This document shows positions 2,961 through 42,209 of a stretch of 64,000 nt of DNA, piece by piece. Source of the stretch: a virus; IMG/VR virus record IMGVR_UViG_3300023179_000042, positions 41,754-105,753 of that record; one strand, 5' to 3'. The notes below the pieces were generated by a model. That model was not told the origin of the DNA, made no database searches, and saw nothing but the letters and a program-made list of their open reading frames with translations. Both the position numbers and the translations under genes were made by a program. The stretch's first letter is position 1. Every line of letters begins with the position of its first letter.

Positions 2961-2987
2961 AGTCTTATCCAAAAAAATGATTAAAGT

Positions 2988-2995
2988 TATTTATA
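2988..2995 (-). promoter_or_regulatory. T4-type late promoter TATAAATA
   Basis: Exact consensus on minus strand, 27 nt upstream of ATG 2960. Confidence 0.7.
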
Positions 2996-3002
2996 AGGAT
3001 TA

Positions 3003-3421
3003 AGGTGAACTTTGTTCACCTGCCCTTTCGCTTGTCGCTCATGGCAAATTTACATCGAAGATGTTTAAGTATCATCTAGATTAAGTGGTCACACTTTGCC
3101 CGCACAGGGCAAAGATTTCTGGGCATCATCTGAGTTGCACAGTCACATAGCGTTAGAGCATTACAGTGGCGGTTGACCGGTACCACGAGCTCAGTCTTTA
3201 TTCAACGGCAGGAGCATACAAATACGCTATCATTCATATGTCCGTTAGGGAATTACCCTTCTTTTTGCCTATTCATTCCTCTTCAAACAACCAAATCGCA
3301 GGTCTTAGTTAGCGATCCTCATCCTTTCGGGTAGTGGTTGAGTACTCTTAGCGGCGAGAGATTTCCGTCCCTGCGACCCGAGGTCCAGGTTTAGAGCACA
3401 CGAACTTGGCCTGTGCGAGCC
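3003..3421 (-). ncRNA. Large structured non-coding RNA candidate of unknown family
   Basis: ORF-free and visibly GC-richer than flanks; about ten helices, a GAAA tetraloop, a 7-bp loop pseudoknot (3224-3230 with 3147-3153); G-U pairs favour the minus strand. Confidence 0.7.
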
Positions 3422-3856
3422 TTAACCGTTTAATTTGCCTTTGATGTGTGAGCCATGGACACGGCACTGGATATGGCCGTTGTAATATTCATCTGATTCT
3501 AAGACTTGGTGTCTAAATTGCTCTCTTGCCTCAATATAACTACATTCTGCTTTAGATTTACAGTAGTAGAGTATTTCTCGTTTAAAATTATCTTTGCCTA
3601 ATTTATTAATATCTTCTGTTAGATTAGGACTGGACCCATAATATTCCTGCCAGTCACTGTCTATTTTGCTACGAATTTTTTTCTTTTTCTTGTTGCCGTT
3701 TTTTAACTTTACTGTTTTGTAGGTTGTTTTACTAAATTTTGCTAATTTTTTGCCTATGTATTTTTTATTATTTGAAATATTTGTTATGATGTAGACAAAC
3801 CCTACACAATCTTCGGGTAGTGCCTCAACTAAAGAATTTTGATAAAACCAAGACAT
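3422..3856 (-). CDS. Stand-alone GIY-YIG endonuclease (Seg-like catalytic domain)
   Basis: GFVYIITNISNNKKYIGKK motif, YYGSS, conserved Glu (YIEARE) and YYN; Lys-rich insertion. Confidence 0.85.
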   Translation of the reverse strand: MSWFYQNSLVEALPEDCVGFVYIITNISNNKKYIGKKLAKFSKTTYKTVKLKNGNKKKKKIRSKIDSDWQEYYGSSPNLTEDINKLGKDNFKREILYYCKSKAECSYIEAREQFRHQVLESDEYYNGHIQCRVHGSHIKGKLNG

Positions 3857-33030: not shown

Positions 33031-34935
33031 ATGCCTCAAGTTACGCAACTTCCATTATTATCAACAGCAACAAATCAAACTTATATATTGGTTGTAGATA
33101 ATAACTTGACTAAAAGAGTTAATTATACAGCATTCTCTAGTCAAATTAATAAAATTAATATTGGACCCAGCGGACCTAAGGGTGTTTCAGGTCCTACAGG
33201 TCCGCAAGGAATTCAAGGCAATACTGGTCCTAGTGGAACTCAAGGATCGATTGGCCCAAGCGGTCCAATAGGTCCACAATCTACTATTCCAGGCCCTAGT
33301 GGTATTAGTGGAGCAACAGGTCCAGTTGGTCCAAGTGGTACATCGGGAGTTTCGGGACCAAGCGGACCGAGGTCTACAATCAGTGGACCTAGCGGACCAC
33401 AGGGTAACATAGGTCCTAGTGGTCCTCAGTCGACTATTAGTGGCCCTCAAGGTGATACCGGTGATACCGGTCCACAAGGCGCCCAAGGCGTTGCTGGTCC
33501 ACAAGGCGCCCAAGGCGTTGCTGGTCCACAAGGCGCAAGTGGTCCCGAAAGTACTGTAGCAGGACCACAAGGTGCTCAAGGTGCTCAAGGCCCAAGTGGA
33601 GTAAGCGGTCCCCGTGGTCCAACAACAGGTAATCAAGGCCCAATTGGCAACCAAGGCCCAAGTGGCGTTAGCGTTAGTGGTCCAAGCGGTCCCGCAGGTG
33701 TAGCGGGACCAAGTGGTCCTGGCGGTTCTCAAGGCCCAAGCGGTCCTGGTGGCGCACAAGGCCCAAGTGGCGTTAGCGTTAGTGGCCCTAGTGGTCCAGC
33801 GGGCGTAAGTAATGTTCCTGGTCCAAGTGGTCCAAGTGGTCCAAGCGGCGTAACAGGTCCTGGTGGAACTCGTGTTTATACAGTAACCAATAGCGGTGCC
33901 AGCGCCTATGTAATCGATGGATCGAATAATCCTACACTAAATTTATTAAAAGGTTTTACCTACCAATTTAGCGTAAGTGCGACAGGACATCCTTTTTGGA
34001 TTAAAACTGCTGCTGTAACTGGAACAGGTAGTGCTTATAATACCGGAGTAACAAATAACGGAACTCAAAGCGGCACCATCACATTTGCTATACCGTACGA
34101 TGCTCCGAGTACATTGTATTATATTTGCCAGCTCCATTCTATGATGGGCGGAACAATTAATATTTCCGATGTAGGACCAGCCGGTCCTAGTGGTCCAAGT
34201 GGCGTAAGTAATGTTCCTGGTCCAAGTGGTCCGAGCGGACCAAGTGGTGTAAGTGTTAGCGGACCAAGTGGTCCGGCAAGTACAATTTCTGGACCAAGTG
34301 GTGTTGCTGGTAGTGTTGGTCCAAGTGGTCCAAGTGGTCCTCAAGGTTCAGCAGGGTCACCCGGTAACGCTGGTCCAAGTGGTCCTAGTGGTGCCGGAGC
34401 CAGCGGTCCAAGTGGCCCAGCAGGCGGAGCAGGTCCAAGTGGCCCATCGGGTCCAAGTGGTGCTGGTGTAAGTGGTCCAAGTGGTGCTGGTATAAGTGGT
34501 CCAAGCGGAACTCGAGGTGCGAGCGGCCCTAGTGGCCCATCGGGTCCTGCGGGTAATGCTGGTGGAGCAGGTCCAAGCGGCCCATCGGGTCCAAGCGGTG
34601 TAACTGGTGCTACAGGTTCTCAAGGATCTGTAACCACTTTGGCTACAGGAACTTACAGTATTGGTGTTTTGTATGCCAATACACTAACAGTAACAGGCGT
34701 AGGTGCTTTTAATATTACTTCAGGTAATGACATCAATTTGAAGGCAACAGGTCAAGTTACAGTAAATGCTCCGTTTGTGCTTACCACAAGCACAACAGCA
34801 GGCCTGGCAGCGCTTGGATCGGTTACTCGTGTAGGAGCAATGGTATATGTTACAGATGCTTCGGGCGGCGCACAACCTTGTTTCTATAATGGAACAAATT
34901 GGTTTACAGTAAACGGAAGGACTCAGATAGCTTAA
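33031..34935 (+). CDS. Collagen-like tail fibre with internal cupredoxin-like domain
   Basis: Extensive G-P-S/G-X-Y triplets; central domain GHPF...[12 protein letters not shown]. Confidence 0.85.
33469..33536. repeat. 27-bp tandem repeat (2.5 copies) in collagen region
   Basis: ggtccacaaggcgcccaaggcgttgct at 33469 and 33496, partial at 33523. Confidence 0.9.
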
Positions 34936-40973: not shown

Positions 40974-42209
40974 ATGCCTTACATTATTAGAAAAACTAAT
41001 GGACAACAGTTAACAAATATCGGCGATGCTACTCTCGATAATAAAACAGATCTGGCTTTGCCGGGAAGAAATTATGCCGGCTATGGACTTGTAGTCAATG
41101 AGAATTTTGTTAGTTTGCTTGAAAATTTTTCTAATTCCACACAACCAAAGAGGCCTATTCAGGGACAGTTATGGTATAACTCAGATACAAAAAATATTAA
41201 TTTATATGACGGATCTATTTTTAAAAGCCTAGCATCGGTTTTTATTCAAAGTTATGCTCCAACAAATTCACAGACTGGCGACTTATGGTGGGATACAGAT
41301 GCTCAACAATTAAGAGCATTTAATGGTAGTTCGTACACATTGGTAGGACCACCGATTAGTAATACCGCTACTGCGTTTTGGGTATCGGCAGATGTAAACC
41401 CTATACAAGGCGAAGAAGAACTTCAATCATCAATTAGTGTCTTAGAAGGTTATGCCGGCGGCTCAGTTGTTGCAACTATTTCAGATACTACATTTGCGCC
41501 AGATATTTCAAATATTTCAGAAAGTTTTCCAAAAGTATATAAGGGTATAACAATAGCTGGTGCTGACCAAATAACCGGTATATCAGCTAATTCAACAGCG
41601 ACTACTGGTTCGGGTTATTTACTATGGGGAACAGCGGCTCACGCCTTACTAGCAAATACTGCCAGGGCTGCTAATGCTGTTAATGTTATAGGAACTTCCA
41701 CTGGCGGCAGTAACTTTTTTGTTCCATTTGGTGATGCCTCAAGTACAGGTACTGCCGCTATGTATGTTAGCAACCGTTTTTATTTTAATCCGGGTACCAA
41801 TGTTTTATATGCAACAGCAGTACAAGCCGCGTATGCTGATATAGCCGAAAGGTACGAAGCAGATGCGGAATATAGTCCAGGGACTGTATTAATGGTAGGC
41901 GGAGAAAAAGAAGTCACATTGCCTGATGCTCATGCTACCACAGCCGTAGCAGGCGTAGTTTCAACACAGCCTGGATATATGTTAAACAGTGATGCCGGAT
42001 CGGACAGTACTCACCCATTTATAGCATTAAAGGGTCGTGTGCCATGTAAGGTTATTGGACCGGTAAAGAAGGGAGATTTGCTCGTTGCTTCGGGACAAAA
42101 TCCAGGTTCTGCTGTTAAAATGCTACCAACAGATAATCCTCTTTCTGTTGTAGGTAAAGCCTTGGAAGATTTAGATGCCCCGGCAGGGATTATTGAAATA
42201 AAAGTTTAA
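40974..42209 (+). CDS. Tail fibre paralog with C-terminal chaperone-like domain
   Basis: Shared N-terminal domain; YADIAERY...IALKGRVPCKV C-terminus. Confidence 0.7.
   Translation: MPYIIRKTNGQQLTNIGDATLDNKTDLALPGRNYAGYGLVVNENFVSLLENFSNSTQPKRPIQGQLWYNSDTKNINLYDGSIFKSLASVFIQSYAPTNSQTGDLWWDTDAQQLRAFNGSSYTLVGPPISNTATAFWVSADVNPIQGEEELQSSISVLEGYAGGSVVATISDTTFAPDISNISESFPKVYKGITIAGADQITGISANSTATTGSGYLLWGTAAHALLANTARAANAVNVIGTSTGGSNFFVPFGDASSTGTAAMYVSNRFYFNPGTNVLYATAVQAAYADIAERYEADAEYSPGTVLMVGGEKEVTLPDAHATTAVAGVVSTQPGYMLNSDAGSDSTHPFIALKGRVPCKVIGPVKKGDLLVASGQNPGSAVKMLPTDNPLSVVGKALEDLDAPAGIIEIKV

Follow-up and report, generated by a model that had tools for sequence, protein, structure and literature searches.

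Why does a phage genome carry, in a stretch without open reading frames, two copies of one short unit placed 54 nt apart? In the window analysed here, a 64,000-nucleotide stretch of IMG/VR record IMGVR_UViG_3300023179_000042 (positions 41,754 to 105,753), the pattern TGTGAC-N10-AGATGAT occurs exactly twice, both times on the minus strand, at 3147-3125 and 3093-3071. An earlier note on this DNA had described both copies, their 54-nt period and an 8-bp hairpin between them, all of which proved exact, and had suggested that constant boxes frame two variable 10-nt segments in a layout resembling that of a dual-guide RNA. The repeat alone says little, since ~10% of Markov resamples of the window, per strand, contained a generic 6+N10+7 twin spanning no more than 100 nt. 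This chance control also met short gapped direct repeats with periods of 69-93 nt at 34389-34558 on the plus strand, which are probably repeats inside a coding sequence. Conservation is what makes us regard the twin units at 3147-3071 as real, since all homologs spanning this part of the RNA have the pair.

Estimated to be 30% complete, the record is a 105,753-base fragment from IMG/VR, and its two complete relatives measure 345–355 kb (~350 kb). The neighbouring genes, which encode gp46/gp47-like nuclease subunits, a gp55-like late sigma factor and a baseplate hub, show the record to derive from a T4-like phage. In this part of the window a single long stretch, 2961-3421, is free of ORFs; it is bounded on one side by a 246-aa ORF (2220-2960) and on the other by a GIY-YIG gene, and it holds a large structured RNA. 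In general, the carriers of this RNA are uncultured giant T4-like phages, in which it sits at a fixed genome position. The RNA and its immediate surroundings comprise the following elements.

3422-3856, minus strand: GIY-YIG gene, 144 aa, catalytic domain only (PF19835, E = 3.5e-33), abutting the 5' end of the RNA
3004-3421, minus strand: the whole structured RNA, ~420 nt, starting with the base that immediately follows the GIY-YIG stop codon and ending with the terminal hairpin (nhmmer; ORF-free)
3285-3421, minus strand: 5' domain, Rfam RF01718 Polynucleobacter-1 (cmscan 120.8 bits, model positions 1-141; sequences at or above the gathering score of 37 bits are members)
3224-3229, minus strand: hairpin-loop strand of the pseudoknot, UAGCGU, pairing with 3153-3148
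3148-3153, minus strand: 3' strand of the pseudoknot, ACGCUA, ending one base before unit A
3053-3063, minus strand: short hairpin CAUC-UUC-GAUG (homolog alignment: GC-rich stems, UUCG-type loop)
3021-3046, minus strand: hairpin UGCC...GGCA with conserved GAG...CGAA interior (homolog alignment)
3004-3020, minus strand: terminal hairpin GGUGAAC-AAA-GUUCACC (RNAalifold: 8 pairs, most with compensatory changes)
2988-2995, minus strand: TATAAATA, between the terminal hairpin and the next ORF (ATG at 2960)

Homologs were gathered by pattern scans of IMG/VR and then with an nhmmer profile, which yielded more than 110 loci. A metagenome scan returned 120 matches, 12 of them true homologs; a pattern scan of bacterial genomes returned 120 matches with no true homolog among them, the pattern being too weak for this GC-rich collection, and a loose pattern search gave noise only. 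The nhmmer profile matches span 3421-3004 end to end in more than 45 full-length homologs, and conservation extends over all of this interval, beyond the portion modelled in Rfam. RF01718 covers the first 137 nt only and its model ends at 3285, so that 3071-3147 lies outside it. Furthermore, the central and twin-unit domains were present without an RF01718 match in 13 of the 14 tested loci whose diverged 5' part escapes the profile. The orphan Rfam motif of 2010 is the first third of a much larger modular RNA. When the 3' domain was searched against Rfam at a permissive E-value, a chance-level match far under the cut-off was all that was returned.

The 6-bp pseudoknot (3229-3224 with 3153-3148) pairs in 44–46 of 46 sequences, and all six of its pairs covary. 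An RNAalifold consensus of 63 diverse sequences supported the inter-unit and terminal hairpins with many compensatory changes and left both units unpaired. The inter-unit hairpin, which is the strongest helix of the single-sequence fold, covaries in these homologs, with one pair appearing as UA, AU, CG or GC and another as GC, AU or UA. A scan of the RNA for promoters and terminators found none. A sigma-70 promoter made of GTGAC and GATAAT was considered and rejected, the hexamer spacing being only ~10 nt by reading and the scan finding no promoter. Beyond the terminal hairpin, ATAAATA recurs in many homologs in the alignment at the position of TATAAATA, and we take this element at 2988-2995 to be the T4 late-promoter consensus. 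Because the RNA ends before it, the RNA is not simply the 5' leader of the next gene.

In 90 of 112 loci the gene immediately upstream of the RNA is GIY-YIG; a few loci, L072, L077, L102 and L057, have no GIY-YIG gene beside the RNA, and the genes downstream of the RNA vary among loci. Among RNA-bearing loci, protein identity is ~70–90% for GIY-YIG, ~50–80% for gp46 and ~30–55% for the baseplate hub. The GIY-YIG protein also matches 494 cultured-phage records, where it is mostly mislabelled 'NAD synthetase', and it behaves like a core gene of Kyanoviridae-like and other T4-like phages, not like a sporadic homing endonuclease. No room for the RNA was found behind the GIY-YIG gene in the three cultured carriers inspected (Melnitz, S-SRM01 and phiN3), and a blastn search of cultured-phage records gave no match to the RNA. 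At L123:3911-4304 (plus strand), a related phage locus, a permuted (alphaproteobacterial-type) tmRNA gene and a tRNA occur a few kb from the copy of the RNA, which may hint at an alphaproteobacterial host for that lineage.

The twin units and the elements around them are arranged as follows, in the 5' to 3' direction of the RNA.

3142-3147, minus strand: 5' box of unit A, UGUGAC (in homologs GUGAC is the conserved part, with NUGRY variants)
3136-3141, minus strand: core A, UGUGCA, variable, the 5' strand of hairpin A
3132-3135, minus strand: invariant tetramer of unit A, ACUC, which with the next purine makes CUCR, a YUNR-type motif
3125-3131, minus strand: word A, AGAUGAU, the same as word B in nearly all homologs
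3119-3124, minus strand: 3' strand of hairpin A, GCCCAG (pairing versus shuffles and single-sequence fold)
3094-3114, minus strand: inter-unit hairpin, 8 bp with a 5-nt loop UGUGC, C3114-C3107 pairing with G3101-G3094 (RNAalifold and fold)
3088-3093, minus strand: 5' box of unit B, UGUGAC (sequence and homolog parse)
3082-3087, minus strand: core B, CACUUA, variable, without a firm partner (helix tests against the post-B sequence and the linker)
3078-3081, minus strand: invariant tetramer of unit B, AUCU (homolog parse)
3071-3077, minus strand: word B, AGAUGAU (homolog parse)

In the homologs, each unit consists of a 5' box (GUGAC and variants), a core of 4–11 nt, a tetramer and a 7-nt word, followed by G-Y in unit A and by A-Y in unit B. 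Of the 82 parsed homologs, 81 have the tetramer ACUC in unit A together with AUCU in unit B; in the remaining one both units have undergone an identical change, to GCUC and GUCU. Since the tetramer is invariant, the N10 of the pattern is a 6-nt core followed by the tetramer, and AGATGAT, previously taken for a box, is a variable word. The comparison that the earlier note had called for, in which boxes should be invariant while cores vary, thus came out differently: the 3' box is variable (16 types) and part of the supposed core is invariant. The spacing of the units is 47–59 nt, with multiples of three not preferred, and each fixed difference between them is a transition (C/U, U/C, C/U and, behind the word, mostly G/A). 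The units are not wholly equivalent, since each tetramer is fixed with its own sequence. Their number is exactly two in all homologs except one (L025:8275-8700, plus strand), a variant without unit A, the inter-unit hairpin and the 3' strand of the pseudoknot, which keeps core B, AUCU, the word and the remaining RNA.

We also compared the boxes and cores with the sequences around them. Pairing between the linker that follows word A and the stretch made up of the GUGAC box and core A exceeded that of shuffled partners (z = 7.0 and 5.6). The pairs seen were GUGAC/GUCAU, GUGAAC/GUUCAU, UGUGC/GCACA and AUGAAAAC/GUUUUUAU, and the window's own fold agrees with the homologs in pairing CUG/CAG and GCA/UGC in hairpin A. 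Unit A is therefore displayed in a hairpin loop, and core A is structural, helping to close the hairpin around the unit. No hairpin closing unit B was detected between core B and the post-B sequence (z = -1.3), and core B gave a weak signal against the linker (z = 2.8). A helix between core A and core B was no better than shuffles (z = 0.4), with the single position pair a5-b2 standing out. The N10 segments are thus part stem and part invariant tetramer, which does not suit the paired guides they had been proposed to be, and what stands of that proposal is its picture of two equivalent single-stranded segments within a constant frame, with a hairpin between them.

Different phages may have different words, but within one phage the two units keep the same one. 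Word A equalled word B in 81 of 82 homologs in the first parse, in 107 of 110 loci in the wider IMG/VR parse and in 11 of 12 metagenome homologs. Two parse failures (L010 and L012) have identical words at a wider spacing when the alignment is read by eye, and only L018 and L419 are truly non-identical, by one base each; by our own count the words are identical in 120 of 122. The word itself takes 16 types, which include all eight forms of R-GAU-R-A-W as well as GCAUAAU, GAAUGAU, AGUUGAA, ACGAAAU, AUAGCAG, AUGAAGA, AGAUGAG and, only in unit A of L018, AUAUAAU. Its first base is a purine in every type, and mixed A/G states between the units were never seen at the three commonly varying positions.

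On a tree built from the flanking gene and the 5' domain, base 1 of the word changed at least 20 times and base 5 at least 14 times, and every such change affected both units. Among independent pairs placed on well-supported branches, 16 were concordant for base 1 (sign test, 3e-5) and 9 for base 5, and none was discordant. A tree of the 3' domain with the words masked gave even higher counts, and across both trees there were 20–29 one-position concerted changes among 74–100 sequences. Even between the closest pairs, with 85–89% identity in the sequence surrounding the words, the difference in the word falls at one and the same position of the two units. The tree-based counts are probably inflated by recombination in the RNA gene and by weak resolution. 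When the alignment is inspected by eye, loci L015 and L016 are near-identical in the GIY-YIG gene and the 5' RNA domain and very different in the twin-unit domain, a pattern that looks like a recombination breakpoint inside the RNA gene.

We then searched for what reads the word. Within the RNA, no alignment column covaried with the word except its twin, k-mers complementary to the word were not enriched, and no window paired with the tetramer plus word above shuffles (z at most 1.8). The ~10 kb of flanking sequence in 107 loci contained no partner at a constant relative position, and there was no enrichment of word complements in the 105-kb record or of a word-complement-plus-RRRU pattern in three large relatives. 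Genome pairs with different words were aligned over 30 kb (G000/G004), 78.5 kb (G002/G008) and 12.7 kb (G000/G002), and no third site beyond the twin units changed with the word. No residue of the GIY-YIG protein covaried with the word (base-1 MI at most 0.13, under the permutation maximum). Profile searches of five records (G000, G001, 100% complete, G002, 99% complete, G004 and G008), which are the analysed record, two complete or near-complete relatives and two further partial ones, gave no match to L7Ae (PF01248), Nop (PF01798) or reverse transcriptase (PF00078). The earlier note had likewise seen no Nop-domain protein in the window, and this holds for the whole record and for the four relatives.

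Several other candidates were examined along the way. A GUUGUUU ~160 nt upstream in ~35 loci, a wobble reverse complement of the word, was rejected because it is an invariant G/U-rich segment that stays as it is when the word changes and that already pairs within the Rfam structure. Extra 11-mer matches in the large relatives were set aside, their flanks looking like unrelated coding sites without shared context. A mini-ORF or stop-codon reading of the form NNN-URA was also dropped; the cores do not come in lengths divisible by three, and the pattern fails in deep variants.

The reading that we place first, though tentatively and at clearly less than an even chance, is that the words are twin U-turn-presented seeds for one external nucleic-acid partner. 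The two boxes would be two copies of one module in the 3' domain of the RNA, each an invariant pyrimidine tetramer followed by a purine-rich 7-nt word; the tetramer would form a U-turn (CUCR, YUNR-type) that presents the word, and both words would pair with one external nucleic-acid sequence or with two copies of the same sequence. The RNA would then be a bivalent antisense-type scaffold or sponge with its specificity written in the word. The analysis shows the anatomy, the identity of the two words, their many independent concerted changes and the lack of a cis partner; the U-turn, the existence of an external partner and its nature are our inference. The external partner is favoured by the single-stranded units, the CUCR with its purine start and the transition-only differences, which mean that one partner strand with G or U could pair with both units. 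The YUNR motif fits unit A as CUC plus a purine in all 16 word types and lies in a hairpin loop there, whereas in unit B it fits only as CU-R-G, in most but not all word types. The reading is weakened by the three-party change that it demands, since the partner must change along with both words dozens of times. It is weakened further because an RNA partner with G-U wobble should allow mixed A/G states, and none were seen, and because the partner searches in the flanks, the record, three large relatives and the aligned genome pairs found none; the unequal tetramers of the two units also count against it.

A close rival, possible but ranked behind the external partner, is that the words contact each other like-with-like, base i with base i, and so clamp the 3' domain. 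The helix would be homopurine or homopyrimidine, parallel or otherwise symmetric, with identity itself as the pairing rule. Such contact predicts identity outright and needs a change of two parties only, and it agrees with the identity covariation and with searches that found no third partner; the rate of concerted change, by our impression, resembles that of compensatory change in an ordinary stem. The words are purine-rich, and every position from tetramer to word is purine/purine or pyrimidine/pyrimidine, as is mostly the base after the word. However, U-U and A-A at base 7, and G-G and C-C at base 2, are unlike in size, the fixed C/U, U/C and C/U pairs of the tetramers have no obvious geometry, and the natural variant L025 has unit B only. 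To our knowledge there is no natural intramolecular helix of seven mixed homo-pairs; a point in favour of the idea is the four-pair A-A helix between identical loops of OLE RNA (PMC12286853).

The remaining explanations trail these two. It is unlikely, although still worth weighing, that the units are twin sites for a dimeric or two-domain phage RNA-binding protein with which the word co-evolves, for which two equivalent sites 47–59 nt apart in a constant frame, identical within a genome and different between genomes, would be suitable. In lambdoid phages the two nut boxB sites match the phage's own N protein in this way. Of the twin protein-binding sites proposed in the earlier note, the notion of twin sites for one partner is still live, but a protein would have to switch specificity at least 16 times for one position alone, all eight combinations of the three two-state positions occur, and GIY-YIG, the only constant neighbour, has no residue that covaries with the word, while the downstream genes vary. 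We give very little weight to the idea that the N10 segments serve as guides, whether in a C/D-box- or TIGR-type dual-guide RNA or in a guide RNA for GIY-YIG. The constant frame around two segments and the nuclease gene that abuts the RNA in 90 of 112 loci speak for it, but this layout fails its defining tests: N10 is part stem and part invariant tetramer, C/D or K-turn boxes are not seen (UGAUGA is absent and most relatives have GAUAAU), and the five records contain neither Nop nor L7Ae. A role for the GIY-YIG protein, suggested for a pull-down, is not supported either, as the nuclease does not covary with the word, 494 cultured-phage records carry it, the three inspected carriers have no room for the RNA and a few RNA loci have no adjacent GIY-YIG. 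Equally improbable is that identity serves a polymerase or ribosome jump from word A to word B, or that the words are repeats acting at the DNA level, for example iterons or recombination cores. A jump has precedents in template jumping from one short repeat to another and in the take-off and landing codons of T4 gene 60, and it would require identity alone and accept any word; there is a stable hairpin between the words, and most words are a codon followed by UAA or UGA. Against this, the five related records hold no reverse transcriptase, the 47–59 nt spacing has no multiple-of-three preference, no ORF enters the region, and the stop-codon pattern does not hold for the words AUAGCAG and AUGAAGA. 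Selection on the region acts at the RNA level, which argues against a jump and DNA repeats alike; 54 bp is too short for known site-specific recombination, and the DNA iterons raised earlier are unlikely for units embedded in an RNA whose helices covary in a strand-specific way and which also forms a 6-bp pseudoknot.

Structured RNAs are discovered by their Watson-Crick covariation; the rule obeyed here, across more than 120 phage genomes and many independent changes, is a different and very clean one, 'be identical'. Were the words to pair directly, this would be a new tertiary pairing mode and an added rule for RNA structure prediction, with 'identity covariation' as its sign in place of Watson-Crick covariation. 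That the like-with-like words form the first natural intramolecular homo-base-pair helix with a freely varying sequence is a prospect we hold as doubtful but real. If instead the words are seeds for an external partner, a bivalent, re-addressable seed would be a new specificity device in phage biology, and the word may be a programmable 7-nt address that aims a large RNA of giant freshwater phages at a fast-changing partner. The size of the RNA, similar to that of OLE and ROOL, suits cryo-EM.

Among known systems, Polynucleobacter-1 was described as an orphan motif from Burkholderiales and from fresh water and estuary, with its function given as unknown in the 2010 paper (PMC2864571). Our RNA has the same 5' 137 nt and the same habitat, but the model stops at 3285, without the twin units. 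The layout first brings to mind guide RNAs with two short segments between boxes. C/D-box sRNAs have a C box RUGAUGA and a D box CUGA and act with L7Ae, Nop5 and fibrillarin; the window, in contrast, has AGAUGAU and GUGAC, and in 53 of 82 homologs GAUAAU, GCAUAAU or similar replaces GAUGA. TIGR-Tas systems combine a Nop-domain Tas protein with a tandem array of many units, each with two different spacers, whereas here there is no PF01798 match, there are two units only with identical variable words, and the neighbours are GIY-YIG, gp46 and gp47. Origin iterons are several direct DNA repeats of ~17–22 bp bound by an initiator, with no RNA-level constraint, unlike the two repeats of 11–13 nt found here among compensatory helices and a covarying pseudoknot. 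Unlike the template-jump RNA of defence reverse transcriptases, this RNA comes from phages in which no PF00078 match was found in five related records.

The large ornate RNAs of microbes and phages are closer in kind. OLE, GOLLD and ROOL RNAs are held together between chains by a symmetric A-A helix and by self-pairing kissing loops, and in the OLE cryo-EM structure the conserved four-pair A-A helix joins identical loops of two chains (PMC12286853). Like our RNA they are large and ornate and show an unusual covariation, which in their case comes from identical segments contacting each other. Their contacts are made between two chains by palindromes or all-A runs, whereas the identical segments here lie in one chain, are non-palindromic and vary widely. 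The recognition loops of antisense RNAs are built on a YUNR U-turn, and the c4 immunity RNA of phages P1 and P7 has short pairing segments that determine immunity specific to each phage. Our RNA differs from c4 in that its two seeds are identical, whereas the a' and b' segments of c4 differ; in its carrier, which is ~420 nt and knotted where c4-type RNAs are small hairpin RNAs; and in its target, which was not found in the flanks, the record or the aligned genome pairs. Like these antisense loops and c4, however, it has a constant pyrimidine-U-N-purine start followed by a short single-stranded seed, and, as in c4, the scaffold is constant and the seed varies from one related phage to another.
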